From: Patescibacteria group bacterium
GTDB taxonomy: Bacteria > Patescibacteriota > Patescibacteriia > PEXW01
Direction of reading: 5' to 3'
Assembly: GCA_041665345.1 (NCBI GenBank)
Contig: JBAYJA010000003.1
Coordinates: 1-39,201 of the forward strand
DNA: 39,201 nucleotides
Each line of letters opens with the position of its first letter. The stretch's first letter is position 1. A program made the position numbers and the translations under genes. Of the stretch, positions 1,730-31,097 are shown piece by piece. Below the pieces are notes generated by a model, which was not told where the DNA came from, made no database searches, and saw only the letters and a list, made by a program, of their open reading frames with translations.

Positions 1730-1775
1730 GGTAAGGCGTAAAGCCATAAAACAGTAAAGCTATAGAGGTCTTTTT

Positions 1776-1870
1776 CTTGTCATCCTGAGTCATACGAAGG
1801 ATCTTGCTTTTCGTATGAAACCAGCAGCAGGATCCTTCGTCGCAGACTCCTCAGGATGACAGAAAAGGAA
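1776..1870. repeat. imperfect palindromic ~95-bp structured element, copy 1
   Basis: Perfect 12-bp outer stem TGTCATCCTGAG(1779-1790)/CTCAGGATGACA(1850-1861) enclosing inner stems CGAAGGATC/GATCCTTCG and TCATACGA/TCGTATGA. Left arm nearly identical to the element at 16423-16520. Confidence 0.6.
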
Positions 1871-2874: not shown

Positions 2875-4278
2875 ATGGATGATTTCAAAAAACGCATGGT
2901 ATTGCTTGGCGGTCTCCTAGGCCTTGTCATCGTGCTCATTATTGGCTACCAAATCTTTCAACGCTCACGAACCGGGGCAGTAGATTGCTCTTCGTCACCG
3001 GTGAAGCGAGTGGAGCTTTCCTGGTGGGGACACCTGGGTGAGGATCAAGCTCAAGCGTTCATTAACGCATACACCAGCCGCCGGCCCTACGTTACCATTA
3101 CCTACCGCAAATTGAGCGAGACGGACAGTGACCAGCAACTCATTGAGGCCTGGGCACGCGGAACCGGTCCGGACATCTACAGCGTGAAGAATGAGCAACT
3201 ACGGTACTTCACCGCATCAGGTTTGGTGACTCCCATGCCTGCCACCACCACCAGCTACACGTACACGGTGAAAAAAGTCTGGGGCATTAAAGAGGAGTTG
3301 AGCGTGTGCAAGCAAACCAAACCTCTGCCAACGTTAGAGTCATTGAAGAGCACCTTCGTTGCTGGAGCCGTGGAAGATATGGCGAAGAACGGGCAAATTG
3401 TTGGCTACCCGCTGAACTTCGACAGCGTGGCTATGTTCTACAACCAGAAGATGCTTGATGATGCGGGCATCCTCACCCCGCCCAGAACGTGGGTAGACTT
3501 TGCGGAGAAGGTGGTACCCAAGCTCACCCTGGAAGATGCGAGCGGCAATCTCACTCGTTCCGGTGCGGCCATGGGTCGGGGGACGAACGTGCTTCGGAAC
3601 CCGGAAATCGTCGCTGGGCTGCTCCAGCAGTACAATGTGCCACTGACTGATGCAACGGGCACGCAAGTGGCCTTTGGCAGCGGTACCAATGCACAAGCCG
3701 TCCTCACCTTGGCAGCAAGCTTCGGTATGCCCACCAAACGAAATTACAGCTGGAACGCCACTTTCCCTGAATCACTTGAGGCTCTGGCACAGGGCAAAGC
3801 CGCCGTGGCCTTTGGCACGCGTGAAGACTACCAAAAAGTGGTAAACCAAACCACCGGCACGGATATCCGCGTGGCTCCCTTCCCCCAAGCTGCTGCCAAC
3901 GGCACCACGTACGTGGCCAACTACTGGCTGGAAACAGTTGCCCGCGCTGCCAAAGACCCAAATGTGGCCTGGGACTTCCTCCGCACGATCGCTGACCCAA
4001 CGCAAGCAAAAATCATCACCGATACGGACACTCCGGCTGCCCGAACTTTAGTGCAGACTGCACGAGGCACAGAAGAGGAGAATCTCTCCATTGCCCAGGT
4101 CTTCGCGCGCCAAGCTGCAACTGCAAAGCCGTGGTACACGGGTGTCAATGCAACCAAGGGCCGCGAGGCGCTGAACACGCTCATTGACACTATTGGCGAT
4201 CAGAAGGAACCAATTGCCCAAGCAATTGAACGCGCCCAAGCACTCTTCCAAATCTCGCTGCGTATACCTGGCCGATGA
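2875..4278 (+). CDS. extracellular solute-binding protein (ABC transporter SBP family 1-like) with N-terminal membrane anchor
   Basis: N-terminal hydrophobic helix LLGGLLGLVIVLIIGY followed by a ~430-aa soluble domain with sugar-SBP-like composition (many aromatic/Gly/Thr residues, GYPLNFDSVAMFYNQKML). No permease or ATPase gene is adjacent. Confidence 0.65.
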   Translation: MDDFKKRMVLLGGLLGLVIVLIIGYQIFQRSRTGAVDCSSSPVKRVELSWWGHLGEDQAQAFINAYTSRRPYVTITYRKLSETDSDQQLIEAWARGTGPDIYSVKNEQLRYFTASGLVTPMPATTTSYTYTVKKVWGIKEELSVCKQTKPLPTLESLKSTFVAGAVEDMAKNGQIVGYPLNFDSVAMFYNQKMLDDAGILTPPRTWVDFAEKVVPKLTLEDASGNLTRSGAAMGRGTNVLRNPEIVAGLLQQYNVPLTDATGTQVAFGSGTNAQAVLTLAASFGMPTKRNYSWNATFPESLEALAQGKAAVAFGTREDYQKVVNQTTGTDIRVAPFPQAAANGTTYVANYWLETVARAAKDPNVAWDFLRTIADPTQAKIITDTDTPAARTLVQTARGTEEENLSIAQVFARQAATAKPWYTGVNATKGREALNTLIDTIGDQKEPIAQAIERAQALFQISLRIPGR

Positions 4279-5923: not shown

Positions 5924-5950
5924 CCGTTCCACACCCGTGGGACGGTTTTG
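5924..5950 (+). terminator. rho-independent terminator after the pilin-like gene triplet
   Basis: Stem CCGTTCC(5924-5930)/GGGACGG(5939-5945) with one G-U pair, 8-nt loop, TTTT 5946-5949. Confidence 0.45.
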
Positions 5951-6030
5951 GGATAAAGGAAAAAATAGGGTTTTGGTGTAGCGGCGAGTGGAGTTCATGG
6001 GTGGGGGTGGGGAAGTGTTTTATTAGTCAG

Positions 6031-6114
6031 CCATACCCTCTACCCATACCTTCCTACTATACTCGCTGCCACACCCAAACCTTCTACCTCTCCAATACGG
6101 TATACTACCCGCAT
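6031..6114 (+). promoter_or_regulatory. conserved C-rich upstream element, copy A (shared promoter/leader module abutting an ATG with no SD)
   Basis: ...CCTCTACCCATACC...ATACTCGCTGCCACACCCAAACCTTCTACCTCTCCAATACGGTATACTACCCGCAT|ATG. Near-identical element in inverted orientation at 14943-15035 and a shorter copy at 31035-31097. Contains TATACT (-10-like) 8 nt before the ATG. Confidence 0.6.
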
Positions 6115-8019
6115 ATGCGCACCCGTATCGCTCTCTCCTTCCTTGGTCTTATTGGACTTGCTGTGCTTTGCTGGACGCTCCTGTTAGCAAACGCAAAACT
6201 CCACGCTGGCGTAACGAATGCACTGGATCTTGGTATTTACACCCAGGTGGCATGGCTATCTGGACATGGACATATTTTTGGTTTTACCATCCACCCCCAC
6301 CTCTACCTGGGTGACCATGTTGAATTTTTGTTCGTACTTGCTGCTCTCCCCTTCCGGCTGTTCCCCTGGCCTCTGACACTCGTTGCGCTGCAAGGATTGG
6401 CAGTCGTGGGTGCAGCATTTGCGCTCTACACCTTCTGCTTGCGTGTGGGATTAGCTACCAAGAGTAGCTTGGTTTGGGCAAGCATTTTCCTTCTCAACCC
6501 CTTCACGCTCAACGCGCTTGTTTTCGAGTTCCACGCATTGCTCTTTGCATTACCGTTCGTCTTTCTCGCAGCAATTGCCTACCAGAAAAAAACCTACAAT
6601 ACTTTTTGGCTATGGTTAATCGTCGTCCTCCTTGCGCGGGAAGATGCCAGCATTTTTGTGGCTAGCTTTGCCGTGCTGGGTCTGCTGGAGCGTCGCTCAC
6701 TCCGCTGGTGGCTGTGGCCAGGAATCGTTGCGGTCCTTTGGTTCTTTGGTACCTCACTACTCGCCGGGGCAATCAACGGTGAAGGGTACAAATTCCTGAG
6801 CCTGCTTTCGGGCGAGAGCAGCGCTGGTGGGTCACTTCGTAATATTCTGTTAGTGTTCAACCTTGGCAATGTCCTAGTGCTCATTGCGCTCCTCATAGGA
6901 ATGGTTGGCCTGCCTCTGCTCGCCTGGCGCTGGGCAGTGACGCTGCTCGTACCGTTCTTCGCCCTTGGTTTGGCTGGGTTGCAGGGAGGAGACCTGATTC
7001 TCCAAACCCACTACGCCGTGTTCTTCTTACCTATGCTGTTCTGCAGTGCGGTACTTGGGTGGCACTCCTTCACCTCCCGCCCTCCAAGCTGGGCACATAC
7101 CCTGGGTGAACACCTGCGTCCACTCAGTTGGATAACGCTCGGCGTCGTTTCGGTGTACGGTCTACTAACCTTCGGCCCAACCATTGGGGCAATCCAAGCC
7201 TGGCGAGCTATCACCCCGGCGCAGCAGGCCAAAGGCGCGGCAATGCAAAGTTTGCGCAATGCAACTGCCCCATCCGCGAGCGTCCTGGCTGGCTATGGCA
7301 CGCTGCCGCTGTTCAGCGCAAGGGCGAATATCTACGCCAGCCACTACGCTTTCCTGGGCAAACGGCAGTACAGTGATCAAGACTATCCCCTACCCAGCAA
7401 ACTTGACCTGGCTGTGCTGGATGCTGAAGACTTTGTCACCTACCAAGTCCAGTTTGCAAAAAAACCTTCCCGTGCCACTGACTACCTGACTGGCGTCAAA
7501 CGCTTTACCGACCTGCTTGCCGCACACCAGCTCCGGCTCACCAGCATTGATGACACGCTGCTGACGTTTACCACCCAGGGAACTGACCTCTTCCCACAGG
7601 TGGTAACGCAACGCACACGCGAGCCACTCAGCGGGGTGGAATTCCTCATCCAAACGCCCGCGCCTGCAATCCAAATCGCGGATGGCAAAACAACCCTACC
7701 CATCATCGCCCAAGTTGGAAACCCCTCACTAGCAAATCTCCAACTTGAACTTCGCTGGTTCAATGCTTCTCACCAGCTGCTGGAAACCCGCTACCTGCCG
7801 CTCGGGTACGGATTGTACCCAACTTCTGCCTGGAAAAATACTGACGAAATAACCACCAACTTCACACTCGTGGTCCCAGATGAAGCCGCCTCTGGCGAAC
7901 TGCGGGCGATCATCCCCAGCGGCCACCTGGCTCTCAATGGTTGGCGTGCAGCTGAAGTCAAACTCGACAAAGATACCCAGCAGATTGGTTTGCCAGTAAC
8001 GGTGGAGGTAGAACGTTAA
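6115..8019 (+). CDS. polytopic membrane protein, DUF2079-like (putative membrane glycosyltransferase) with C-terminal extracytoplasmic domain
   Basis: About 10 predicted TM helices in the first ~330 aa; ALDLGIYTQVAW...HPHLYLGDHVEF loop motif reminiscent of DUF2079; C-terminal ~300 aa soluble. The 5' part of the ORF-track call (6001-6114) is the noncoding conserved element. Confidence 0.55.
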   Translation: MRTRIALSFLGLIGLAVLCWTLLLANAKLHAGVTNALDLGIYTQVAWLSGHGHIFGFTIHPHLYLGDHVEFLFVLAALPFRLFPWPLTLVALQGLAVVGAAFALYTFCLRVGLATKSSLVWASIFLLNPFTLNALVFEFHALLFALPFVFLAAIAYQKKTYNTFWLWLIVVLLAREDASIFVASFAVLGLLERRSLRWWLWPGIVAVLWFFGTSLLAGAINGEGYKFLSLLSGESSAGGSLRNILLVFNLGNVLVLIALLIGMVGLPLLAWRWAVTLLVPFFALGLAGLQGGDLILQTHYAVFFLPMLFCSAVLGWHSFTSRPPSWAHTLGEHLRPLSWITLGVVSVYGLLTFGPTIGAIQAWRAITPAQQAKGAAMQSLRNATAPSASVLAGYGTLPLFSARANIYASHYAFLGKRQYSDQDYPLPSKLDLAVLDAEDFVTYQVQFAKKPSRATDYLTGVKRFTDLLAAHQLRLTSIDDTLLTFTTQGTDLFPQVVTQRTREPLSGVEFLIQTPAPAIQIADGKTTLPIIAQVGNPSLANLQLELRWFNASHQLLETRYLPLGYGLYPTSAWKNTDEITTNFTLVVPDEAASGELRAIIPSGHLALNGWRAAEVKLDKDTQQIGLPVTVEVER

Positions 8020-9680
8020 GCCGGGGGCAGCACTTCGTACACCTTCGCGCTCGGCGTATCGTGGATCAATTTGAGGTAGGACTTACCCTCTGGGCTAAAT
8101 GGTTCAAACTGTTCTTTTTCTAATTCGGTCCAGAAAAAGTATCGAATTCCTTCTTGCCGAAGAAATGCCTCAGGATTTCCTTCTGGGGTTGTAAAAGTTT
8201 CATACACACCCTTCTGCTTTTCAAAATACCCAAGTGTTTGGTGCCCATGCGCAAAGTATGTGGGCAGCAGAGTTCGTCCACTGAGAATGTACGACGTCGT
8301 TGATACGGAAAGGGTAATGCCAGGCGGCTGCGTCTTCAGCCAATCCATGGTTTCCAGGGTGGTTTTTGGTTGCATGTAGAGCGACCATTCCCCGGGTGTG
8401 TATACATACGAACGACTTATATCCCGCGCCATGAGGTAAAGCGGCGAGTAGCACAGCAAGAGAATGGCAAGCCATACTGTACCCGAACGCCACACAATTT
8501 TCAGTGGACTGTTCTGTGTGCGCGCAATAATTTGCTCCCATAGAAAAACGAGCGCGAAACTTGCCAAAATTGCAAAAACGATATGGAGACCATTGGTAAA
8601 CCGGCGCTGGATTTGCACAGGCACGTAGAGGAGGAACGCGTGCATGGGTGCCCAGGCGAGCAGAAAGAGCATGGGCAAAGAGCGGGGTAACCGAACAACC
8701 CGTAGCCAACCCCAAACCGCAAAAACCAGGAGGAAGCCATAGCCAATGCAGTAGTTCCAAATGGGTGGCGAAGTGGTGATATTTTGCTTTGCCCAACCAC
8801 CTAAAGCTGGCTCTATCTGGTAAACGGCAATGAAGTACGCGCCAATCCCTGCGGTAACAAGCCCCATGATTGCCAAACGGACAATGGAACGTTTGGCTTT
8901 GGCAATGGAAAATGCTCGATCATAGAGAATGCGAACAAACGGCAAAATAATCAAGACGCAAAAAATGACTGGTAAGTCATACGGGTGGAGAATTCCCAGG
9001 AGTGCCGTGAGGCCAGCAAAAATGAAGTGTGGCACCGTGCCTGGACTTTGCTCATCCCGCACGGCGAAGAGGAAAGTGAGTAAGAGCAGTATTTGAGATA
9101 TGATGAACAGGGGTGAGTGCAGGAGCGTGGTAAAAGTAAAGGCTTCCGAAACCCACATATCCACAGGATTCTTTGTGAGCAATTCTTGCAAACTCGTGAG
9201 GTGCAAAAAGGGAGAAACGTACCCACCCAGCCCCATACCAAAAGCTAAAGCAACAAAAGCAATCCGACGTTGCAGGGATTTCTCAATGAACAAGAGTAAG
9301 GCTTTATACGCAATCCATAGAAAAATACCCGCTAGAAAAATTTTCACGAGGTGAAAAAGTATTGCATTGGGTAGGTGAAAAACACCTGCCAGGAAACCCA
9401 AAATTGCCCAAAGTGGTTGGAAAAAAGCATACCTTTGCGCCTCAGGTGTAAAAACGTTCGTAAAGAACACATGCCCCGTGGTTCGCGCCTGCTCCATCAT
9501 GGAAAAGTAGACGTTCGTGTCCGAGGGAGCCAAAGTGCTGAAACCCATGAAGACATCTCCCTTCCGTAGCCAAAGAGCACCGAGCACAAGCGGCAAGACG
9601 CCTAGGATAATTGCAGCCGTTGCTATCCAAAAAGCAAATGGACGCTCAGCTTTTGGAATCGAGGGGAGAATAGGGTGCAT
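8016..9680 (-). CDS. large polytopic membrane protein, GT-C-fold-like (paralog of 11058..12716)
   Basis: 554 aa, >10 TM helices, C-terminal soluble domain. Strong paralogy to 11058..12716, e.g. FSMMEQARTTGHVFFTNVF..FFQPLWAILG vs LSYIEQARTSGHVFFANVF..FFQPLWAVIG, and C-terminal IRYFFWTELEKEQF vs IRYLFWTEQEKQFF. Confidence 0.6.
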   Translation of the reverse strand: MHPILPSIPKAERPFAFWIATAAIILGVLPLVLGALWLRKGDVFMGFSTLAPSDTNVYFSMMEQARTTGHVFFTNVFTPEAQRYAFFQPLWAILGFLAGVFHLPNAILFHLVKIFLAGIFLWIAYKALLLFIEKSLQRRIAFVALAFGMGLGGYVSPFLHLTSLQELLTKNPVDMWVSEAFTFTTLLHSPLFIISQILLLLTFLFAVRDEQSPGTVPHFIFAGLTALLGILHPYDLPVIFCVLIILPFVRILYDRAFSIAKAKRSIVRLAIMGLVTAGIGAYFIAVYQIEPALGGWAKQNITTSPPIWNYCIGYGFLLVFAVWGWLRVVRLPRSLPMLFLLAWAPMHAFLLYVPVQIQRRFTNGLHIVFAILASFALVFLWEQIIARTQNSPLKIVWRSGTVWLAILLLCYSPLYLMARDISRSYVYTPGEWSLYMQPKTTLETMDWLKTQPPGITLSVSTTSYILSGRTLLPTYFAHGHQTLGYFEKQKGVYETFTTPEGNPEAFLRQEGIRYFFWTELEKEQFEPFSPEGKSYLKLIHDTPSAKVYEVLPPA

Positions 9681-9684
9681 GGGC

Positions 9685-10941
9685 TTAGTACACTGTATAA
9701 ATCATAATGAACCAGCCAACAGTCAGAGCGAATACTGCTCGGTATGCATGTTTCGTCTTCATGAACGGGGTGAGCACAAGCGGCCACGTGAGATACCAAG
9801 GCTGTACCCACTGCAAAGCAAAGCAGATAACGGCGCAGAAAACGTAGAATGCGGCTACGGGTAACTCTAGCCGCCCCTTCCACACCAACCACGTGAGCCA
9901 GCCAATGCACACAATCGCAATGCTCGTCCCAATGACGACAGCGAGCTGCAGCGCTGCATGCAACGGCATATCAGGCTGCACAGTGCGAATAATACCCAAA
10001 AATAGTTTTTGTGGGAAAAAAATCGGATTGACATAAAATTGTCGCCCCATAACCAGGAGACCTTCAAACATCCTTGGTCCAACCCATAGGAGCGCATACA
10101 TCAAAACCAATGCCACGAGGGCAGACCCGCTTGCAAAGAGCAGCTCACGAAATTTCTTTTCACGCGCGTACACTGCAAGAAAGAGTGGACTTAGCACAAC
10201 GGAGATGTGCTTCGTGGCAATGCTTAAACCAAAACTAAGTCCGGAAAAAGCAGAGTTCCCAAATGGTATGAGCGCTAAGAGGATAAGCACGACGAACAGG
10301 CCGTCATTATGCGCATCGCCAATGAGCTCAATGATCAAAATGGGATTAAGGATGACTAGGAGTGCAAGCGTCCGAGGTCGCCATCGTCCTAACAAGGCTG
10401 CGACACTTGCAAACATTGCAACGCCCAGAAATTTGAAAATGAAGAACTGCGTTACTAGTCCAGCGTGCAGTTTTCCAATGAGCACAACAATGCCCATCCA
10501 AAGTGGGCCATATGGCGAAGGGTATGGGCGCCATTGATCCCATACACCGTGCCAAATTGGATTCCCGGGGCCTAAACTTGCTGGGCCTTGGAGGTACGGG
10601 CTGGCATGCTGACTAATTTCAGCATACGCCATGTAGTTGTAGACATCACTTGATTTGGTAAGAAAATTAAGGAAGTACGGAGCAACGGAGAGTGCGAGGA
10701 CGAGAATAACCTGCTGTATGGATGGCGTATACCCGTGCTGCATCCTGTACACTGCCAAAAGGTATGCGCCGACGAGTAGAAGGAGAAAAAAAGCATGCAG
10801 TCCCTCCTGAAGATTCACTGAAAAACCATACCAGATACCCGTCTGTTCAGCAGTAAGGGCAATGCCAGCATGCAAGGCGACGGCAAGAGCAAGCCCAGTG
10901 GGCGTGTATGGAAACAGCGATCCCTTCTTTTGCGTCACCAT
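9685..10941 (-). CDS. polytopic membrane protein, DUF2029/GT87-like (putative polyprenol-P-sugar-dependent glycosyltransferase)
   Basis: 418 aa, about 10 TM helices; first extracytoplasmic loop SDVYNYMAYAEI...GNPIW resembles the D..Y...A...NPY signature of the GT87/DUF2029 family. Confidence 0.45.
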   Translation of the reverse strand: MVTQKKGSLFPYTPTGLALAVALHAGIALTAEQTGIWYGFSVNLQEGLHAFFLLLLVGAYLLAVYRMQHGYTPSIQQVILVLALSVAPYFLNFLTKSSDVYNYMAYAEISQHASPYLQGPASLGPGNPIWHGVWDQWRPYPSPYGPLWMGIVVLIGKLHAGLVTQFFIFKFLGVAMFASVAALLGRWRPRTLALLVILNPILIIELIGDAHNDGLFVVLILLALIPFGNSAFSGLSFGLSIATKHISVVLSPLFLAVYAREKKFRELLFASGSALVALVLMYALLWVGPRMFEGLLVMGRQFYVNPIFFPQKLFLGIIRTVQPDMPLHAALQLAVVIGTSIAIVCIGWLTWLVWKGRLELPVAAFYVFCAVICFALQWVQPWYLTWPLVLTPFMKTKHAYRAVFALTVGWFIMIYTVY

Positions 10942-11057
10942 GGCGATTACAAATATGCAGGTGCAAAAAAATGTAGCAAATACATCATCGTATGATTATG
11001 CAGCTACGACAATGATACCACGCAAAGAATGTAGCGCCCAAAGGAGCGATCACGCCT

Positions 11058-12716
11058 TTACAGGGCATAAATTTCAGTTGTTTGATTTTGAAAAATGAGG
11101 TGCAACCATGGGTAGTCTTGCGGGGAAAATGCTGCAAAAAATTGCTTCTCCTGTTCAGTCCAAAAGAGGTACCGAATGTGGTTTTCCTGAAAAAAAGCTT
11201 TGGCCGTATTCGCGCTTCGGGATCCTGGAAAAGCTACACGTAGTGCTTGGAACTTCTCAGCGTGATTCGGCGTTTGACTTCCATCCGAAATATACGTGGA
11301 TCGCAAGGTTTGGCTCGACAGGACAAAGCTTGTGGTGTCTGCGCTGAGGGTCAGGCCGGGTGCTTGCTGGCGAAGCCAGTGCATAGCATCAAGTGTTGCT
11401 CGGTCAAACTGGTATACCTCCCGTAGTGTCCCTGGCACCGAACCACCCACGAGCGGCTCCACAACAGTAAACCAGGTTGAAGGACACAGCACCCCTGCAA
11501 ACACCATGCCGCCAGTGGTAAGCCACAACGCCAATGGCACGCGCTGCCGCTGTGCCCATTGCCACACTGGCTCCACCGCAAGCCCTACGACGACAGCCAG
11601 CACGATGCTCAGACCATTGAGAAAACGACTTTGTACTTGCGTGGGTGAGTAGCTGAGGACCAGTGCAATGGCCGGCCAAAGCAAAAAAATGGCTTTGGCT
11701 TTTTGAAAAATGTCCCGATGCTTCCACCCTTGCCAGAGCCATAGCGGAATGTACACGCCATAGCTTATGCACACCACAAGGAGTGATGGACTTGGGGTTA
11801 CATTTTGCTGCGCCCAACCCAGAATACTGTGGTCAAGAAGCAGGGCGCTCACAAAGTAAGCTAACGCTGCCGTAGCTGCTAAACAGAGCATCTCCAGCCG
11901 AACGATGCTCTGCTTCCAGCCGGATGTTCGATACACCGGTTCACGGAAGAACCGAAGCAGGCTAACACCACACACGCAGGCAATGAGAATGACGGCATCG
12001 TATGGATGGAGTAACGCAAGCAGCAACGTACCGGCAAAGAAAACTGACCGGGGGACTTGGCCAGGCGATTCTTCGTCGCGCATTGCGAGCGTTACTAAAA
12101 AAACGAGTAGAGCTAACGTGAGAATGAAAAGTGGTGAATGGGCGATGGACTGAAAGACAGTAAACTGCGGCATAGTAATATCCGCCGGCATAAGATTGGC
12201 ACCTGGTGAAAAAATTGTTGGGAGTTGCTGTACAAATGGCAAAAAATAGAGGCCTACTCCTGAGCCAAAAACGCCGAGCGTCGTTGCTACTATCCGACCC
12301 CGGACGGTTGGTAGAAGCAAACCCGTAAATCGGTAAATGGCGAGTACCAACAGTGGGATGGATGCCAGTCGTACGATGTGAAAGACAAGCGCTGGGGCAA
12401 GGTGGAATACCCATGAAAGAAGCCCAATGACCGCCCACAAAGGCTGGAAGAAGCTCTGCGTATGCGGCTCTGCCGCAAAAACGTTTGCAAAAAAGACGTG
12501 GCCGCTGGTTCGCGCCTGCTCAATGTACGAGAGGTAAATACCATTGTCATTGCGTGCGGTTTCACCAAAACCAATGAACACTTTCTCCGGTGGTAACCGG
12601 AGCACACCTACGAGCAATGGAATCCCGGCACAGAGGATTGCTACCAGGCTCAGCGCCCATAAAAACTGCCGCTCCCTTTTTGCAAACGGGGGAAAAAGGC
12701 GTTCCATACAATGCAA
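11058..12716 (-). CDS. large polytopic membrane protein, GT-C-fold-like (paralog of 8016..9680)
   Basis: 552 aa; same architecture and conserved blocks as 8016..9680 (see that entry). Confidence 0.6.
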   Translation of the reverse strand: MHCMERLFPPFAKRERQFLWALSLVAILCAGIPLLVGVLRLPPEKVFIGFGETARNDNGIYLSYIEQARTSGHVFFANVFAAEPHTQSFFQPLWAVIGLLSWVFHLAPALVFHIVRLASIPLLVLAIYRFTGLLLPTVRGRIVATTLGVFGSGVGLYFLPFVQQLPTIFSPGANLMPADITMPQFTVFQSIAHSPLFILTLALLVFLVTLAMRDEESPGQVPRSVFFAGTLLLALLHPYDAVILIACVCGVSLLRFFREPVYRTSGWKQSIVRLEMLCLAATAALAYFVSALLLDHSILGWAQQNVTPSPSLLVVCISYGVYIPLWLWQGWKHRDIFQKAKAIFLLWPAIALVLSYSPTQVQSRFLNGLSIVLAVVVGLAVEPVWQWAQRQRVPLALWLTTGGMVFAGVLCPSTWFTVVEPLVGGSVPGTLREVYQFDRATLDAMHWLRQQAPGLTLSADTTSFVLSSQTLRSTYISDGSQTPNHAEKFQALRVAFPGSRSANTAKAFFQENHIRYLFWTEQEKQFFAAFSPQDYPWLHLIFQNQTTEIYAL

Positions 12717-12731
12717 TGTGTGCTACGAAGC

Positions 12732-13343
12732 CTACCGCTTCTCCAGCAGCAACATGGTCCACGGGATGGGCTGCTTGCCCCGGCGAACAACGAATGATTG
12801 CCCAACGAATCGTCGGAAACCCCACGGGGTCCAGTGGTTGATGTGCCCGGGGGTGTTCCCCCACCCTTTGAGGTACGTTCCCCGTGCCATGTTCATCACT
12901 CGCCACAGCGGCTCATGGGGTACGCTGATGATCGCCCACTTCTTGGTGACTCTAGCGAGTTCAGCCAAGGCTTTTTCTGGCTGCTCCAGGTGCTCCAGTA
13001 CTTCCAGCGCAAAAACCAAATCCACTGAGGCGTCAGGCCGGTTGAGAGCAAAAATGGATTCCACGCTGCAGGTTGCGCTGGGTACCCGCGCTTGGGTTGC
13101 TGTCACCAATTCTGGGGTGATGTCCGATGCTTGCAAGTCAACGTCAGGCAAGAAATGCCGAATGTGCTCGGTGGAAAAGCCTTCACCGCAGCCGACCTCC
13201 AACACACTCTTTAGATCGTTTGGTAATAGTCCCTGCAAAGTTTTGAAAAACCCGCGGAGGAAGTGCCGCATGATTGGGTTCTTAGATTCGTACTTCCCGC
13301 GGAAATCATCCTCCGGCCGATTGATGGGTGGTTGGTATGGCAT
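12732..13343 (-). CDS. class I SAM-dependent methyltransferase
   Basis: Motif I VLEVGCGEGFST, acidic residue after beta-2 (ASDIT), motif IV-like LVFALEVLEHL; 203 aa. Confidence 0.8.
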   Translation of the reverse strand: MPYQPPINRPEDDFRGKYESKNPIMRHFLRGFFKTLQGLLPNDLKSVLEVGCGEGFSTEHIRHFLPDVDLQASDITPELVTATQARVPSATCSVESIFALNRPDASVDLVFALEVLEHLEQPEKALAELARVTKKWAIISVPHEPLWRVMNMARGTYLKGWGNTPGHINHWTPWGFRRFVGQSFVVRRGKQPIPWTMLLLEKR

Positions 13344-13352
13344 ATCCGTACC

Positions 13353-14942
13353 TTACTCTGGATTCTGCCAAGAGTAAATCCACACCTCAGCATCTTCGTA
13401 CGCCAGTTCCACACCCGGCGTCACGCGAACATTCTCGTACATCTCCCGATGATCTTTTTCCACAAAAATCCACTTCGTATTAAAGAGGTCAAAGGCTTCA
13501 GCCAGGTTGTCCTTTTTCTGGCCCAGGGTGGTCTGCGCCCAGGCCCAGTAGCGGGTGACATCTTGGCGGTAGAGGAAGGTTGGATCCAGACCGGCGATGT
13601 ACGCGTTTACCGTGTTGTAGTAGAACAGCACGGGAAAATCATCCCAGTCACTGTGGAAGACCACGTCGCCAGGTTTGGAATGCTCTGCCATCCAGGTGGC
13701 CGAGGCTTGAAAGTGAGTAGCATTTACTCCCGAAGAAAGGTTCTGCACATTGGTGCGCTGATCCCGCGCAACCACGTATGGCACGCTGACCACAATGTAC
13801 AGCGCGAGTAGCCCCACCACAATTTTTCGACGCTGCCACTGCTGCCACACGCTCTCCCAGATGTGTCGCCAATCGCTGGTTTTCAGCACATCACCCAGCG
13901 TCACTGCTGCAGCCAAAGCAATGAACGGCACGGCATACTCCACGTACCGCCTAGACTTTAAGGTGACAACGCTGAAGAGCAGTGCGAGGAGCACCAGGGT
14001 CCACCCTTTGGCCGTCGTTCGTCGCAGGTGCACAATGGCCAGCACCAGCGCCAGTAGGAACGGAATGATGACCACCACATTATTCCCAATGAACTCGGTG
14101 AAGCCGTACGGATACCACTCCCCGCCCACGCCAATGACATTTCGGTAGTTCACCACGCCAATTTGGATAACCTGCTCCCACAGAAAATGAAAAGTGTTTG
14201 GGAAAAAAGGGTTTGCCACCATGCCCACCCCGGCGCCAGCCAAAACGCAGCCAAAGACCTGCAGCGGTCGGTAGTGCAGAAATCCCTGCCAGGTCCACCA
14301 GGGTTTCCTCCCCGCTTCCGCTGCTTCCCGTGCCCAATGCCGTACCAGGTCAACGACTGCGTACGCAAGCAATGACAGCCCGGCTGCCGCAATGAGCACC
14401 AGAAAACCGCCGTAGAGCAAGACGAAGAACCACGCCAGAAAAAATGTCAGCCACCGCTTCCCCCGGAAGATGCACCACAGACCAATGAGGAGTGTGGCCA
14501 GAGACAAGCTGGGCGCTTTGGCCAAACTCATCCGAAAGGTGAACGGCGTTGCGGCCAATAGCACTGCTGCCCAAATCCAGGCGTGGCGTACCCCAAAACT
14601 GCGAACAAACCACACCGCAACTGTCAGTAAGAGCGATGCAAAAACTACGGTCGCCAGTTTGATACCAGCCAGTGGATCCATGAGCCGCACAAAGGGAACC
14701 AGCGCAACATGATACAACCAGTGCTGGTCAATGTAGTGCTCGCCCAGCGTGGTGAAGGGCAACCAGGGCAATTCTCGCACCGCACCCTGCTGGCTGGTCA
14801 GCACCGCGATCCGCGCATGGTAGAAGGAGTCAGGATCGGCAAAGACCGCGCTCCGTTGCATCAGGAAAAAAGCAACGAAGCTCACCACAAACGTACCTAG
14901 GAGCATGAGGAGCGTCGTGTGGCTCCGCCAGTGAATAGTCAT
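13353..14942 (-). CDS. polytopic membrane protein, ArnT/PMT-like GT-C glycosyltransferase candidate
   Basis: 530 aa from ATG 14942 (the ORF-track start 15122 includes the noncoding conserved element). First loop FADPDSFYHARIA resembles the PDE.RYAEI loop motif of ArnT/PMT_2-type GT-C enzymes. About 12 TM helices, C-terminal soluble domain. Confidence 0.5.
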   Translation of the reverse strand: MTIHWRSHTTLLMLLGTFVVSFVAFFLMQRSAVFADPDSFYHARIAVLTSQQGAVRELPWLPFTTLGEHYIDQHWLYHVALVPFVRLMDPLAGIKLATVVFASLLLTVAVWFVRSFGVRHAWIWAAVLLAATPFTFRMSLAKAPSLSLATLLIGLWCIFRGKRWLTFFLAWFFVLLYGGFLVLIAAAGLSLLAYAVVDLVRHWAREAAEAGRKPWWTWQGFLHYRPLQVFGCVLAGAGVGMVANPFFPNTFHFLWEQVIQIGVVNYRNVIGVGGEWYPYGFTEFIGNNVVVIIPFLLALVLAIVHLRRTTAKGWTLVLLALLFSVVTLKSRRYVEYAVPFIALAAAVTLGDVLKTSDWRHIWESVWQQWQRRKIVVGLLALYIVVSVPYVVARDQRTNVQNLSSGVNATHFQASATWMAEHSKPGDVVFHSDWDDFPVLFYYNTVNAYIAGLDPTFLYRQDVTRYWAWAQTTLGQKKDNLAEAFDLFNTKWIFVEKDHREMYENVRVTPGVELAYEDAEVWIYSWQNPE

Positions 14943-15035
14943 GTAGGAAGTATACCGTATTGGAGGGGTGGAGGGTTTGGGTGTGGCAGCGAGTATGGTT
15001 AGAGGGTGGCGGTTTAGGATGGGTAGAGGTACGAG
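14943..15035 (-). promoter_or_regulatory. conserved C-rich upstream element, copy B (inverted relative to copy A)
   Basis: Minus-strand reading: ...CCTCTACCCATCC...CCATACTCGCTGCCACACCCAAACCCTCCACCCCTCCAATACGGTATACTTCCTAC|ATG. About 85% identical to copy A over about 70 nt; abuts ATG 14942 with no SD. Confidence 0.6.
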
Positions 15036-15204
15036 TGAAATACAATACTCCTCCCCTCCTTTCGAAGGAGCCGTCTGCGGCGGGTGCGAGCGAGCACAGC
15101 ACCTTAGGTAGGGGGAGGTCACCCTTACCGAGAAAACAAAATCACGCAGAATAAAAGTCTGGAAAAAACAAAAACATATTCTACTTCCTTCTTCTCAATC
15201 CCCT

Positions 15205-15258
15205 CTCCATTCGTAATTCGTATATTCGTAGCATCTTTTCGTAATTCGTAACCGTATA
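15205..15258. repeat. five direct ATTCGTA(A/T/G) heptamer repeats
   Basis: CCATTCGTAATTCGTATATTCGTAGCATCTTTTCGTAATTCGTAACC; same heptamer as at 1887-1906. Lies between the PGI terminator and the element upstream of the membrane gene. Confidence 0.4.
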
Positions 15259-15261
15259 AGA

Positions 15262-15290
15262 AACCTCCCCACCAAGCATGGATGTGGGGA
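15262..15290 (-). terminator. hairpin terminator for the PGI/PMI gene (minus strand)
   Basis: Perfect 9-bp stem CCTCCCCAC(15262-15270)/GTGGGGAGG(15282-15290), 11-nt loop. On the minus strand it is followed by TTTCTTATAC, T-rich. Confidence 0.5.
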
Positions 15291-15321
15291 GGTATGCAAG
15301 ATCTGTATTTCGAAAATATAA

Positions 15322-16380
15322 TTACCCGAGCTTTTTCTTAAAGTAATGCACCCAGTTAATTGTGGCAGGGTTAATATGATTGCGCAAGCCCAAGGCCAAG
15401 GTCAACGCTCCACCAAATGCCACTGCCGCAACTGCTTGCGAAAACCGTGTCTGCCCCGGCACTCGGAAGCTGGCAACTTTCGCAGCGTTTTTCAGCACAA
15501 CCTCGCTCGTCAACCGGAAACGCTTCTGAATGCGAGGATGGTACAGCCCTGAAGTGAGGAAGAGAAACGTCGTTTTCCGGGTATTCACCTTGGGATTGGC
15601 CAGGCCTTCCATGAGGTGGTGATTCAATTCCGGAATGGCAAAGTAGGTAGCCAGAGCTTTAGCGGTTTCATTCAGTTGATTCGCCAGGACATGCGCCGAA
15701 CCAAGAGTGTGCTCTGCACCTATCACAAAGATTTGCCGGTTGAGCAACGTGGCGGTTAAGGTAGCCACAGGATTGCCTAGCTTCCGCAAATCAAGCTGCT
15801 TTGCATACCGTTCAAGGTCACGAATGGCTTGTTCAACTACGGGTAAAGGCAAAGTGATGAGCCCGGATTTGGAAAGCAGACCCAGCAAACCAAATATCCC
15901 ATACCCTAAGCCAAGCCTGGGTTGATCAGACGGGTTTTCTCTGGGGGTAAAGATGTACGCTGGGATATTCCCACGCTTTGCCGCGCGTCCCAACGCCCCG
16001 CCCGTGGCTTGAATTAGGATCTTCGCACCTCGCTGCTGGGCGACCTTCAGTGCGGCCAGGGTTTCTTCCGTCGTACCAGAGTAGCTGGAGAGGACAACCA
16101 ACGTCCGCTTCCCTACCCAAGCAGGCAAATGGTAATCATTCACAATCACAATTGGCACGCGCAAATACTCAGCGCAAGCTGTCTGCAGCATGTGCGCGCC
16201 CAAAGCGCTGCCACCCATGGCGGCAACCACAATCGCATCAACTTTTCCCTTCAATGAGGAGATTTTCAAGCGACGTACTTCTATCCACGCCTGCCTTGCT
16301 TGTGCGCCAAAACGCAGTACTGACCCATGGACATCCTGGGGATCGTACTGCTGCAGCAGTCGAGTGAAAGAGACTGGCAT
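15322..16380 (-). CDS. SIS-domain phosphoglucose/phosphomannose isomerase (bifunctional PGI/PMI-like)
   Basis: 352 aa; two SIS-like Rossmann segments (VVAAMGGSALGAHML and LVVLSSYSGTTEET), size and layout typical of archaeal/bacterial bifunctional PGI/PMI. Confidence 0.6.
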   Translation of the reverse strand: MPVSFTRLLQQYDPQDVHGSVLRFGAQARQAWIEVRRLKISSLKGKVDAIVVAAMGGSALGAHMLQTACAEYLRVPIVIVNDYHLPAWVGKRTLVVLSSYSGTTEETLAALKVAQQRGAKILIQATGGALGRAAKRGNIPAYIFTPRENPSDQPRLGLGYGIFGLLGLLSKSGLITLPLPVVEQAIRDLERYAKQLDLRKLGNPVATLTATLLNRQIFVIGAEHTLGSAHVLANQLNETAKALATYFAIPELNHHLMEGLANPKVNTRKTTFLFLTSGLYHPRIQKRFRLTSEVVLKNAAKVASFRVPGQTRFSQAVAAVAFGGALTLALGLRNHINPATINWVHYFKKKLG

Positions 16381-16422
16381 ATCCGTACCCTAGCGCGTGG
16401 CGGAGAAGCTGTAAAGTCGCGA

Positions 16423-16520
16423 AGGCCTTTTTCTGTCATCCTGAATCAGATGAAGGATCCCCAGACTATGGATAAACTTCGGAGATTCTTCGTTAGACTC
16501 AGAATGACAATGAGGAGGAG
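16423..16520. repeat. imperfect palindromic ~95-bp structured element, copy 2
   Basis: GGCCTTTTTCTGTCATCCTGAATCAGATGAAGGATCC...CTTCGTTAGACTCAGAATGACAATGAGGAGG. Left arm is about 85-90% identical to 1771-1804; outer stem TGTCATCCTGAATC/GACTCAGAATGACA (12/14 paired). Confidence 0.6.
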
Positions 16521-16647
16521 TTAGGTAGAAGAGGGCGGGATCCCGCCTCAGTGACGGGACGTAACTATCCCCTTCACATAATGGTGTAAAACGGACAACT
16601 ACGTTAAAATAAAGCCGTCATTCATTAGCTAAAGCACGCTTGCATCT

Positions 16648-19600
16648 ATGGAAATCAAGTCAAAATTTCACTTTTTTCGTCAGAACAACTTCACCTACCT
16701 GGACAGCGCCGCCACAACCCAAGTACCGGATGCGGTGACGCGTGTGGTGGAGCAGTCTTTGCAGTACAAAGGCAACCCGAATCGTAGTGCGCACGCCGTA
16801 GCGGAAAAAAATGAACAGGCGTTGCAAGCCGCCCGGGAGAATATTGCCGGCTTCATTGGCGCCACGGCAGAGGAACTCATCTTCACAAATAACACTACGG
16901 ACAGTATCAACCTTGCGGTGGATGGTATTGCCGACCATGTAAAGCCTGGTGACGAAATTGTCATCGCCGTGTCTGAACATCACTCCAACATGCTGCCCTA
17001 CACCAAGCTGGTAAAGCGTGGGGCGAAAATCCGCATCGTAGGCATCAAAGACGGCGTGGTCAATCCAAACGATGTGCAGAAAGCGCTTACGCCCAAAACC
17101 CGTATCGTGGCCGTGGGACACTGCTCCAATGTCCTCGGGAACATCAACGACGTGGTAGCTATTGGCAAACTCGTTAAAAACCACGACAAGAAAATCTTCT
17201 TCATTGTGGATGGCGCGCAAGCCGTGGCGCACATCCCAGTAGACGTCCAGGCAATGCAGGCGGACTTCTACGCGTTCTCGGGCCACAAAATGTACGGGCC
17301 AGATGGCGTAGGTGGATTGTACATTGCCCGAAAAATCCACCACCTGCTCACTCCGACACGTATGGGTGGCGGCACCGTGCAGAATGTGGCCATCACCTTT
17401 GATAAAACTGGTGATATCATCTCCCCTGACTACTTCCCGTCGCTCATCACGTTGGAAGGTGGCACGCCAAACCTGTCCAACATTCTCGGCCTTTCTCGCG
17501 CCGTCAACTTCATTCGTTCTATTGGCTTCCCAGATATTCAGGCACACGAACGCGGGCTGCTAAAACGTTTGCTGGATGGGTTGGCGACAATTCCTGGGGT
17601 GCAGGTCTTTGGTCCCACCGACCTCCAACAAAAAATTGGCGTCCTCTCTTTTGGTTTGCAAGACACGAACACCAAAGAACTCGGCGAACACCTTGGTCGC
17701 CAAAAGATCTGCATTCGCTACGGCGCACATTGTGCCTTCCCGCTAGCGGAAAAGCTGGGCCAAGAAACCCTGCGCATTAGTCTGGGCGTGTACAACACCG
17801 AAGAAGACATTGACCACGTGCTCAACGAAATGCGATTCTTCTTCGATAAGAAACAAGGGCGCATTACCAACCCCAACCTGGAGCCCCTGCGCAACAAGCT
17901 CTACTACCGCAGCACCCATGTGGTGAATTCCTATGCTGCCCTGGCCGAAAAGCTGCAGCAATCCCTCTACGGCCCACAGGATACGGAAATTATTGTCATG
18001 GGTGGCCACTTCTTGGGCATACCAGACATGCAGGAAAACCGCTTCTGGCCCAGCATTGCAACCATGGTACCCGAGCGCCTGCACGGCCTCATGGATGAGT
18101 TTGGCATGACGAGCTTTCCGCTTTTCACGTGGCGCTTGGCTTGTCGGACGGTTGCGGATTTGAAAGCGCACGGATACCAAGCAAAACTGGCAATTATTGC
18201 CAATGACACAACGGGAATGAATGAACTTCGTAACTCTGAAGCCAACACAACAAAGAAAACCGCTGAGCAATACCGAACTGAGTTACTAGATACTTTTCAA
18301 GAAGACGGTCATTTACCAAATCGCTATAGTGAAATTCTCAAAGAGCACGGATTGCATAAGCGAGATATTCTCAAGAATGGTGACAAATTCGTATTTCAAG
18401 AAACCTTACTCCGAGCCAACTTCAAAAAATTTGTTGATGGTAATAAAAATTTCTTTGATGGCATCATTGCCTACACAAAAAAGGCAGAGGAGAATATCGA
18501 CTTATCAATTAAACTCCTCGATAATCAGGAAATTGCTTCCTGCACGTTTAATACATTTCAATCAAAAACTGGTGGGAAGTTTTGCATTGTTGAATTGTGT
18601 CAATTTATTGCCGAACTCTTTGGTAAACCAGAACTGATTACATTCCCCTATGTATCACAGCGCGTACTGAAACCAAAGGTGACAGCAAATCACAAGATTC
18701 TTTTTGCAATCACGCCCGCGATGTGCGACAACGCTGTGACGCGATCCGCGGAACTCTACACCAAGCTTTTCCTCCAGGAGCAGAGTAAAGGATCATTTAA
18801 ATTCTTCAACTTGCCCCTAGGCCCAAATGCTGAGCGCAGCTTAGCTATGGGCGCAGAACTCAAGTATGTCTCAGACAAAGACAATCTTGAGGTACTTGAT
18901 ATTGAGCATGAGCCCGCATTTCCAGATCTCTGGCGCTTGGCTGAGTACAAGCTCATCTACAATGCTCCTGCCTATGTAACTGAAATGACCGCGCTTTTTG
19001 CGAAGCTGGGCCTCACCAAGAAATCCGCACTGCTGGATACCTGTGTGGGTCCAGGCTTCTTTGCCACTGAGCTGTTGCGGCAAGGTTACAATCTGCATAC
19101 CGCAGACAAGAGTGAAACCATGATGGCACCATTCCGCGCAACCCTGAAAGAGCTTGGTATCAACCACCAGCCCACAGTGAGCACGTGGCTTGATTTGCCA
19201 AAACACTTCGAGGCAAATTCCATGGATATGCTCTTCAACCGTGGGAACACCTTCATCTACGCGGCAGGCGGCTGGCATGAGCGAATCACCGTGGACCGAG
19301 AAAAATCTTTGGCGAAATATTTAGAGACGTTACGCGTCTACTACAGCCTTCTCAAGCCAGGTGGCTACCTCTACGTAGATAAATTCCGTGATGCAGAAAT
19401 CCCAGATAAAAAAGTTGTTGCTCGGCTGTACATTCAGGAGCCTGCGCAGCAAAAAGACGTAGTCTTCTACGTCGAACGCAAACCAGAAGATCACATTCGC
19501 TTTGCGCAAATGCTCTTGCGCGACACCCAAGGCAAAGAGACTGGATTACCAAACATGGCCTATGACTTGAGCGTAGAAGAAATGGAAATGTTGCTACAGA

Positions 19601-19685: not shown

Positions 19686-20531
19686 ATGATGTCTGAAAAA
19701 AATCACGCGCCAAATCAGGACGCGGATAAGGAAAAAACCGAATACAAGACATTCCGCCTAGATCACGAGCCCACGTTTGCGGAGCTGTGGGAGCTGTGCG
19801 TGAATGAGCTGCTCTATAATGCGCCAAAGCATTACGATGAAATTGAGGCACTTTGGGAGCGACAAGGAATAACCAAAGAATCCAAAATTATTGATGTTGC
19901 TGCTGGGAGTGGCTTCCCCGCACTTGGTTTGCTGCAACGAGGGTGGAACATAGACTCCGCTGATGGCTTTACGGATGAGGTGGAACTCTTCAACAAACGT
20001 GCGGAAGAGGCGGGGTTGCCCGAACGCTGCGCCCAAGTGCTATGGGCGGATTTGCTCAAACAGTACCCAAAAGAAGCCTACGACTTCTTACTATGCAGAG
20101 GTAATTCATTCATATACGCGCCGGGGGGTTGGAATGCTGAAGCGCCGATAACCCCGCAGGCTGCACTGGAAGCCTACACCAACACAGCAAAAAACTTCTA
20201 CGATTTGCTCAAACCCGGTGGGCAGATGTACATCGATAAATTCAAAGATACCGAAATCTCGCATAAAGAAACCGTTGCGCGCTTGCAAATTGGTAACGCG
20301 ACCCCAGAAGACCTCATTTTCTGGACCCAACGCTTTTCGGAGCAGCACATTCGCCGTGCGTCCATGATTCGCCGCAAACAGGATGGTACCGAAACTGGCA
20401 CACCGAACATTTCGTATGACCTTACCTTTCCAGAAATGGAAAAGGCATTAACGACGGCTGGTTTTTCCAAGATTGAACAGCAGCAGCTTGAAACAGAAAA
20501 AGTTTTCAACACCTGGATTGCAACAAAGTAA
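19686..20531 (+). CDS. GNMT-like class I SAM-dependent methyltransferase, standalone paralog of the C-terminal domain of the upstream 1009-aa protein
   Basis: 281 aa, co-linear with aa ~730-1009 of the upstream protein: DHEPTFAELWEL/EHEPAFPDLWRL, IDVAAGSGFPA/LDTCVGPGFFA, CRGNSFIYAPGGW/NRGNTFIYAAGGW, LLKPGGQMYIDKFKDTEI/LLKPGGYLYVDKFRDAEI, C-terminal ETEKVFNTWIATK/AQEKHFVVWLAQK. Confidence 0.75.
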   Translation: MMSEKNHAPNQDADKEKTEYKTFRLDHEPTFAELWELCVNELLYNAPKHYDEIEALWERQGITKESKIIDVAAGSGFPALGLLQRGWNIDSADGFTDEVELFNKRAEEAGLPERCAQVLWADLLKQYPKEAYDFLLCRGNSFIYAPGGWNAEAPITPQAALEAYTNTAKNFYDLLKPGGQMYIDKFKDTEISHKETVARLQIGNATPEDLIFWTQRFSEQHIRRASMIRRKQDGTETGTPNISYDLTFPEMEKALTTAGFSKIEQQQLETEKVFNTWIATK

Positions 20532-20565
20532 GTTCGCGGATTGAACGCAGGACGCACTTTTTCAC

Positions 20566-20594
20566 TTGACCTTCACATATTTTTTTAGTATAGT
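20566..20594 (+). promoter_or_regulatory. sigma70-like promoter TTGACC-17 nt-TATAGT upstream of yebC
   Basis: Hexamers at 20566-20571 and 20589-20594 with 17-nt spacer; ATG 20627. Confidence 0.45.
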
Positions 20595-30922: not shown

Positions 30923-31034
30923 AACAAGGAACTCGGAACCGAGAACAGAGAACCAGAATGGGAAAAAGCAGGAGTGAACCTCCCCTCTGGTTCCAAGTTC
31001 ATTGTTCTCAGTTCAAAGTTCCCTTCCAAAGTAG

Positions 31035-31097
31035 CCATCCAACCATACCTTTCAACGATACTCGCTGCCACAACCAAACCCTCACCCCTTTGCAACT
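31035..31097 (+). promoter_or_regulatory. conserved C-rich upstream element, copy C (core only)
   Basis: CCATCCAACCATACCTTTCAACGATACTCGCTGCCACAACCAAACCCTCACCCCTTTGCAACT|ATG. Shares the ATACTCGCTGCCACA(C/A)CCAAACC(C/T)TC(T/C/A)ACC core with copies A and B but lacks the CCAATACGGTATACT proximal module; no SD. Confidence 0.5.

Follow-up and report, generated by a model that had tools for sequence, protein, structure and literature searches.

The two inverted copies of a C-rich sequence that bracket a block of glycan-related genes in a Patescibacterium are a by-product of gene orientation. A conserved non-coding module heads two convergent units, and the two copies are neither the ends of a transposon nor the arms of an inversion switch; both conclusions are well supported. 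The module belongs to a repeat family of narrow distribution. According to the reading that we favour, to which as a whole we give about an even chance, this genus-restricted repeat forms the upstream part of a leaderless-type promoter, and provides at the DNA level a putative binding site giving glycan units a common input. The sequence analysed is a stretch of 39,201 nt (positions 1 to 39,201 of contig JBAYJA010000003.1, assembly GCA_041665345.1), referred to here as the window.

The window had been described, in a sequence-only reading, as carrying a large inverted-repeat pair and a third copy of the same element in front of an unrelated gene, each copy ending exactly at an ATG, and all of this is borne out (Table 1). 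An inverted-repeat search of the window returned two arms of 78 nt (6037-6114 and 14941-15018), 81% complementary and 8826 nt apart, which constitute the longest inverted repeat by far. All others measure at most 42 nt, and the next longest, of 42 nt, is formed by copies B and C. In a gapped global alignment A and B are identical at 78 of 106 columns, with a single 11-nt indel. Identity is ~87% over the 67 promoter-proximal nucleotides, and the longest exact run is the 23-mer ATACTCGCTGCCACACCCAAACC, found at 6059 (+) and 14974 (-), and with one mismatch at 31058 (+); none is expected by chance (100 shuffles). ATG codons directly follow each full copy, at 6115 (A), 14942 (B) and 31098 (C). The composition of A and B is markedly asymmetric between strands (5-6 G versus 37-45 C per 84-93 nt), and G-poor tracts of 93-102 nt occur at the repeat.

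Table 1. Coordinates of the repeat copies, their parts and the associated features in the window
Feature	Position	Strand	Description
Terminator-like hairpin	5924..5949	+	3' of pilin gene, upstream of A'-A; read from the sequence
Copy A'	5968..6017	-	degenerate inverted partner of A; nhmmer E 0.003-0.008
Copy A	6031..6114	+	C-rich, G-poor arm; 37 C and 5 G in 84 nt
Copy A, parts	core 6059-6081; TATACT box 6101-6106; ATG 6115	+	exact 23-nt core
DUF2079 polytopic membrane protein gene	6115..8019	+	634 aa from ATG; headed by copy A
Five-gene unit	8016..14942	-	headed by copy B; converges on the DUF2079 gene
Copy B	14943..15035	-	C-rich, G-poor arm; 45 C and 6 G in 93 nt
Copy B, parts	core 14974-14996; TATACT box 14949-14954; ATG 14942-14940	-
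A'-type arm inner end and loop	15036..15060	-	possible remnant, upstream of B; from alignment
170-nt insertion	30923..31092	+	hairpin, then copy C; lineage-specific
Copy C	31035..31097	+	shorter member, devoid of the CAATACGGTATACT block
Copy C, parts	core 31058-31080; ATG 31098	+	core with one mismatch

Copy A is accompanied by a degenerate partner, A', which lies downstream of the terminator of a pilin gene and has its G-rich strand on the plus strand. A' and A make up an imperfect palindrome of ~115-150 nt, able to form a long hairpin (RNA fold -62.9 kcal/mol, z -4.5). The terminator-like hairpin which precedes them has a stem formed by 5924-5932 and 5937-5945, and is followed by TTTT. Upstream of copy B, AGGAGGGGAGGAGTATTGTATTTCA resembles GGGGAAGTGTTTTATTAGTCA of locus A, and could conceivably represent what is left of an A'-type arm. 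Copy C is part of a 170-nt insertion, which separates a GalT-like gene from the stop codon of the glycosyltransferase gene before it.

Genes headed by all three full copies are related to glycans, and encode a DUF2079 protein (A), GT-C-like proteins (B) and a GalT-like protein (C, start at 31098). The unit downstream of B includes, in order, genes for a 529-aa membrane protein, a methyltransferase, a 549-aa membrane protein, a GT-C protein of the MptA_B family (418 aa) and a 554-aa membrane protein; this unit and the DUF2079 gene are convergent, and overlap by 4 nt. The bracketed block thus hosts five proteins with ~8-11 hydrophobic segments each and a 203-aa methyltransferase, and gene and hydrophobicity analyses agree on this point with the five polytopic membrane proteins and one methyltransferase initially listed. 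Since one and the same upstream sequence heads two convergent units, A and B are necessarily inverted relative to each other. Each full copy is also preceded by a co-directional gene, encoding a pilin (A), PGI (B) and a glycosyltransferase (C). Genes of the T4SS_pilin type are typical of Patescibacteria, and are present in the window; the MAG is listed at NCBI as "Patescibacteria group bacterium", with locus tag WCV85_. The unrelated PGI and methyltransferase genes (15322-16380 and 12732-13343, both on the minus strand) are identical over the 15 nt surrounding their start codons, GGTACGGATATGCCA.

The arrangement had been likened to a composite transposon, and inversion or excision of the block, in the manner of a phase-variation switch, had been envisaged. 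Neither suggestion survives comparison with other assemblies and genomes, and the outcome for the original idea is mostly negative, the large inverted repeat being no sign of a glycan island that moves or inverts. Three assemblies of this species, from ENA, Logan (SRR6484324) and JGI (3300037810), yielded contigs which follow the window collinearly, at 99.96-100% identity; assemblies show the majority arrangement only. The ENA contig (ERZ27249449:k141_524871), nearly identical to the window, is 176,635 nt long, and a Logan contig spans 5849-15254, running through both copies and both outer flanks in the orientation of the window. The JGI contig ending near copy B has three mismatches at its start; they fall in a B-type and not in an A-type flank, so that the contig end is not an inverted junction. 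Contig breaks were also considered as signs of inversion and discarded, as the Logan contig ends away from the edges of the repeat, in a pilin paralogue (5849) and among TTCGTAA repeats (15254).

Gene order tells the same story. In the sister species (L055) A, A' and B occur at the same positions, with the same gene order and orientation. Relatives lacking the repeat (L026-L028 and L031) exhibit the same succession of PGI, B operon, convergent DUF2079 gene and pilins; this comparison concerns relatives with a DUF2079 gene nearby, in which the B protein is 69-73% identical. The block is consequently not an insertion relative to these genomes, as a composite transposon would be, and its arms are 84-93 nt of non-coding, promoter-proximal DNA. 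Over the 57 kb of this genome for which gene tables were examined, no called gene carries a Pfam domain of a recombinase, an integrase or a transposase; the sole DNA-junction enzyme encoded there is RuvC, a housekeeping enzyme. Moreover, the -10 boxes (6101-6106 and 14949-14954) and the ATGs are located on the inner side of the shared core, hence inside the putative invertible segment. Flipping would not turn either unit on or off, and upon inversion both promoters would stay attached to their genes.

Some features are nonetheless those of a recombination substrate. The copies are inverted, and their exact 23-nt run is about as short as RecA-dependent exchange allows, the minimum being ~23-27 bp in E. 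coli. At two or three sites A and B agree within a genome and differ between genomes, CCAATACGG being found in both copies of the window and GCAATACGG in those of the sister species. Such homogenisation hints, faintly, that gene conversion may occasionally take place between A and B. When the sister species are compared, the block is also hypervariable in its interior. Yet three collinear assemblies, one with a contig through both copies and flanks, an order and orientation unchanged with or without the repeat, the lack of invertase and integrase genes nearby, and promoter-gene links that inversion leaves unaltered, make programmed or frequent inversion (or excision) of the 9-kb block extremely improbable. 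Rare inversion, or gene conversion, is possible. The notion of A and B as the template and variable repeats of a diversity-generating retroelement (DGR) was rejected, given that a reverse transcriptase gene is missing nearby, the copies are outside coding sequence, and their differences are not adenine-specific.

The variability of the block is worth describing in its own right. Comparing 8016-12707 of the window with 12236-18556 of the sister species, amino acid identity is 64% for the 549-aa protein and 57% for the MptA_B protein. The last gene of the B unit encodes 554 and 508 aa, respectively, and the sister species carries two extra genes, for a methyltransferase and a GT2 protein. The outer genes are conserved, at 93% for the B protein, 95% for the methyltransferase and 81% for the DUF2079 protein. 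The bracketed block resembles in this respect a surface-glycan diversification locus with conserved flanks.

Conservation of the repeat itself argues for a function. Compared to its orthologue in the sister species, copy A is 86% identical (102/118), A' ~92% and B 77.5%. Third codon positions are identical at 55% in the DUF2079 gene, 61% in the B gene, whose protein is 93% identical, and 55% in the PGI gene, and range from 38 to 66% over the genes compared. The difference between 77-92% in the copies and 55-61% at third codon positions denotes purifying selection, and is not what neutral repeat debris would exhibit. The A'-A pair has kept its hairpin potential in the sister species (z -5.7), and the terminator-like stem (5924-5945) has been kept through a compensatory change of an A-T into a G-C pair. 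As far as sequence conservation can tell, a functional repeat is a well-supported reading of these comparisons.

The function does not reside in a coding sequence, nor in a conserved RNA fold. The shared sequence falls in different reading frames at A and B, and orthologous copies in the two sister species differ by indels of 11, 4, 3 and 2 nt. An N-terminal coding extension of the DUF2079 gene was discarded on these grounds, as frames differ and orthologue indels are not all multiples of 3. Gene callers do place the start of this gene at an upstream GTG, giving proteins of 672 or 677 aa in which the repeat is translated (6001-6114 in the window, 20464-20592 in the sister species); such calls most likely run through the repeat because the G-poor tract has no stop codons, and the likely start of the gene is the ATG at 6115.

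RNA folding gave equally negative results. RNAalifold found 0 conserved pairs over seven copies, B and C, folded as single sequences, do not outscore shuffled ones (z -0.6 and 0.0), and Rfam returned no match at the gathering threshold, and at E<=1 only generic hairpin matches for A'-A. A riboswitch, or a structured leader located in the 5' UTR of the three genes, could be imagined, since copies are directly upstream of start codons, and copy C must be transcribed at least in part, its gene having no -10 box near the ATG. These folding data, the virtual absence of G residues available for pairing, and the fact that half of the family is antisense at the 3' ends of genes render such a cis-regulatory RNA most implausible, and it was rejected. 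A G-quadruplex on the G-rich strand was discarded as well, as the pattern of G-tracts differs between copies.

The layout at A and B is that of a promoter. A Shine-Dalgarno sequence is present in few of the genes of the window, and several exhibit a TAnnnT box, with 6-8 nt left between it and the ATG, as exemplified by GCTATACTACCCCCATG at 34184. Such a box, GGTATACT, is separated from the ATG by 8 nt at copy A and by 6 nt at copy B. The block CAATACGGTATACT is found without any change in A and B, and in the orthologue of each in the sister species (4/4). Orthologues of both genes in relatives devoid of the repeat keep the layout, with boxes GCTATACTACACCCATG and ACGGTACACTACCGGTATG, respectively. 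Transcripts of the genes at 6115 and 14942 would thus be leaderless, or nearly so. Were transcription to begin at the start codon, or beside it, the repeat would function as DNA and not as a 5' UTR. At both loci it would correspond to the upstream part (approximately from -17 to -95) of a leaderless-type promoter. A simple consensus promoter scan found no sigma-70 -35/-10 pair at A or B. Sigma-54 and ECF-type promoters were also considered for the core and rejected, as resemblance is partial, and is conserved neither in copy C nor in the more distant members of the family.

The promoter interpretation put forward at the outset holds only in part. It fits the full copies, as A, B and C all abut an ATG, and A and B have the invariant CAATACGGTATACT box at a position of the leaderless type. 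It does not fit copy A', nor the four copies identified in a related genome (CAZBMC01, see below), which point into the 3' ends of convergent genes and have nothing to drive. Loci which are not promoter-proximal outnumber those that are, and the repeat family as a whole is therefore not a promoter.

The family is small, and its restriction to one genus of Patescibacteria is well supported. A degenerate version of the core was used to scan 185,579 species-representative genomes, and true relatives were found in one metagenome-assembled genome (MAG) only, CAZBMC01; 11 further matches are consistent with chance. This genome (contigs CAZBMC010000065, 54, 3 and 4; L009-L014) is titled "uncultured Gammaproteobacteria bacterium", a label that looks wrong. 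Its EF-P is 98% identical to an EF-P (MFA6043284.1) assigned to the MAG of the window on account of an accession number neighbouring that of the B protein (MFA6043093.1), and the other EF-P relatives are Patescibacteria. CAZBMC01 is probably a congener of the organism analysed. Its four copies share ~60 nt of similarity with those of the window, and in all four, 11-21 nt separate the C-rich 3' end, or core, from the stop codon of the gene converging on it (rpsR, parB, translin and rnc). The context of A', behind the 3' end of the pilin gene, is the same, and every copy of the family resides between the end of a gene and the next gene. The contig with the rpsR gene (L009) has a scaffold gap (~100 N) inside this gene, with duplicated sequence on either side.

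Core scans of metagenome, viral, plasmid and phage collections detected no copy, and none was found at 19 distant JGI loci (205 kb), nor in the four relatives with a B protein 69-73% identical. Two relatives, with EF-P identities to CAZBMC01 of 89% and 77%, are missing the copy between rpsR and efp. In the sister species the insertion hosting copy C is absent, the distance from the glycosyltransferase stop codon to the GalT ATG being 5 nt, and outgroups lack copy C as well. The number of copies amounts to 3.5 in the 57 kb read of this genome, and to at least 4 in the congener. On this sequence comparison the family has gained copies after the split of the sister species, and copy C is a recent 170-nt insertion.

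A distribution of this kind is what one may expect of a selfish, MITE-like element, devoid of any role for the host and scattered by a transposase encoded elsewhere. Presence and absence vary among close relatives, as illustrated by copy C, by the rpsR-efp copy, lacking in a relative with an EF-P 89% identical, and by the four relatives without any copy, and the A'-A pair resembles terminal inverted repeats. Neutrality is at odds, however, with the conservation of orthologous copies, far higher than that of synonymous sites. Target-site duplications do not flank the 170-nt insertion, no transposase is encoded in the 57 kb read, and plasmid and phage collections gave no match. Furthermore, only locus A has an inverted partner, B, C and all four CAZBMC01 copies consisting of a single arm. 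A purely selfish element is on balance unlikely.

Other site-specific systems did not fit either. Integron attC sites, parS, Ter and DnaA-box motifs were examined and discarded, either because the motifs are unfit, or because copies are mixed in orientation with respect to the inferred direction of replication. The dnaN and dnaA genes are located just to the right of the window (14796-17347 of L024, equivalent to ~40.9-43.5 kb of the window), and between them G-poor tracts of 113 and 68 nt are found on the minus strand. GC skew suggests that replication proceeds leftward through the window, and relative to replication the repeat copies are in either orientation.

The main rival to a DNA-level binding site is that the repeat is a general intergenic repeat similar to REP/ERIC, or insulates transcription in an orientation-dependent manner, and that adjacency to promoters in the window is incidental. 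In the insulator version the C-rich strand, once transcribed, would be a Rho-loading (rut-like) tract, blocking read-through into the A, B and C genes, or antisense transcription into 3' ends, as for A' and the CAZBMC01 copies. The strong strand asymmetry and the long G-poor tracts are in line with this hypothesis, as is the location of every copy between a gene end and the next gene, with A' and the four CAZBMC01 copies abutting 3' ends. In all three cases in the window a co-directional upstream gene (pilin, PGI and glycosyltransferase) could be read through, and the arms of locus A form a conserved palindrome of ERIC-like size. In contrast, a 23-nt core conserved at 100% is more than a rut tract requires, and, if A and B are leaderless, the tract would be transcribed by read-through only; partners suitable for hairpin formation are missing at B, C and the CAZBMC01 copies. 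We regard this explanation as possible, and look upon it with some doubt.

Returning to the binding-site reading that we prefer, A and B would be members of a small dispersed family of non-coding repeats, made of a C-rich arm of ~60-95 nt with a conserved core of 23-35 nt. At both loci the repeat would be promoter-upstream DNA, transcription probably starting at or next to the start codon. A segment of ~110 nt, including loop, arm and -10 box, may have been copied from the head of one GT-C glycosyltransferase unit to that of the other, convergent one, plausibly before the two sister species split, and the 9-kb inverted geometry would simply follow from the orientation of the genes. The core may be bound by a trans-acting protein, either a regulator or a nucleoid-type protein, which would provide the envelope-glycan units A and B with a shared input, extended to C by the later insertion. 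Besides the copies at 3' ends, the missing -10 box of copy C and the negative sigma-70 scan at A and B, the base composition counts against this explanation. The C-rich, G-poor stretch continues beyond the core, as one would sooner expect of an RNA-level or strand-specific feature than of a site bound by a protein.

Alternatively, the core could be the recognition site of a system as yet undescribed in Patescibacteria, functioning as a polar insulator or terminator which does without hairpins, or as a site of recombination at which flanks are exchanged. The idea of flank exchange stems from the mosaic character of the sequences on the 5' and 3' sides of the core, and from the two or three sites apparently homogenised between A and B. 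If true, the hypervariable interior of the glycan block could occasionally be inverted or swapped. We consider any such system very unlikely.

Gene regulation is almost unstudied in Patescibacteria. A short non-coding element, far better conserved than nearby synonymous sites, heads three envelope-glycan units, and one of its insertions is recent. The repeat provides a handle on the promoter architecture of these bacteria, with apparent leaderless starts, and on the rewiring of their regulation.

Additional repeats were noticed in the same sequences. The motif TTCGTAATTCGTA, often doubled as TTCGTAATTCGTATATTCGTA..TTTTCGTAATTCGTAAC, occurs in the window at 1893-1905 and 15210-15262 (+), at 2435-2447 in one CAZBMC01 contig (L009), and at ~212-260 and 3863-3910 (-) in a relative (L026). 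In the window one instance is upstream of an NTP-transferase gene, and another faces the 3' end of the PGI gene, with no gene to serve. In relatives the motif immediately precedes ATGs, of efp in CAZBMC01, and of GalT-like and APH genes in a Hainich MAG. REP-like hairpin repeats with GTCATCCTGAG...GAAGGATC are present in the window (1765-1803 and 16421-16459) and at ~2570-2650 in the congeneric MAG (L011); common to both genomes, they probably form hairpins of the terminator type. In a relative from Hainich groundwater an RVT_1 reverse-transcriptase gene (331 aa; L032, 10572-11567, -) resides directly downstream of efp, and has no counterpart in the sequence read from the genome of the window. 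A retron, a group II intron or a DGR could account for this gene.

Among known systems, invertible switches such as fimS, hin, the polysaccharide promoters of Bacteroides and shufflons come to mind, as inverted repeats flank a segment related to surface glycans. Those switches combine short repeats, placed around a promoter or an alternative gene end, with a dedicated recombinase. Here the segment is 8.8 kb long, promoters would move with their genes, no recombinase is encoded in 57 kb, and the alternative orientation is found in none of the assemblies and relatives examined.

The ERIC/IRU and REP/BIME sequences of enterobacteria are likewise short, non-coding and intergenic, are often found after stop codons in either orientation, and vary in presence between close relatives. 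ERIC palindromes measure ~125 nt, and the palindrome at locus A is of similar size. The repeat described here differs in being mostly made of single, strand-asymmetric C-rich arms and not of palindromes, in its apparently low copy number, and in its Patescibacterium host, and its sequence does not resemble theirs.

Of published concepts, the one that comes nearest is the putative mobile promoter, a sequence of more than 50 nt, at least 80% identical between copies and found within ~150 nt upstream of the start codon of genes which are non-homologous downstream and upstream (Matus-Garcia, Nijveen and van Passel 2012, Nucleic Acids Res 40:10032, PMC3488235). Such families have mostly 2 members, some are shared by related species, and conservation starts a few nucleotides before the start codon (PMC3488235). 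The likeness lies in repeats of 50-100 nt with at least 80% identity, placed directly upstream of non-homologous genes and forming small families. A and B share 78 ungapped nt at 81% identity; the A/C pair is borderline, with 49 nt at 84%, just short of the length threshold. Downstream genes encode a DUF2079 protein, a 529-aa membrane protein and a GalT-like protein, upstream genes a pilin, PGI and a GT4 glycosyltransferase, and the genes of neither set are homologous or joined by a repeat family. Putative mobile promoters are an operational class and not a mechanism, and half of the family described here is upstream of no gene; judged by sequence, the A/B pair may nonetheless be placed within that class.
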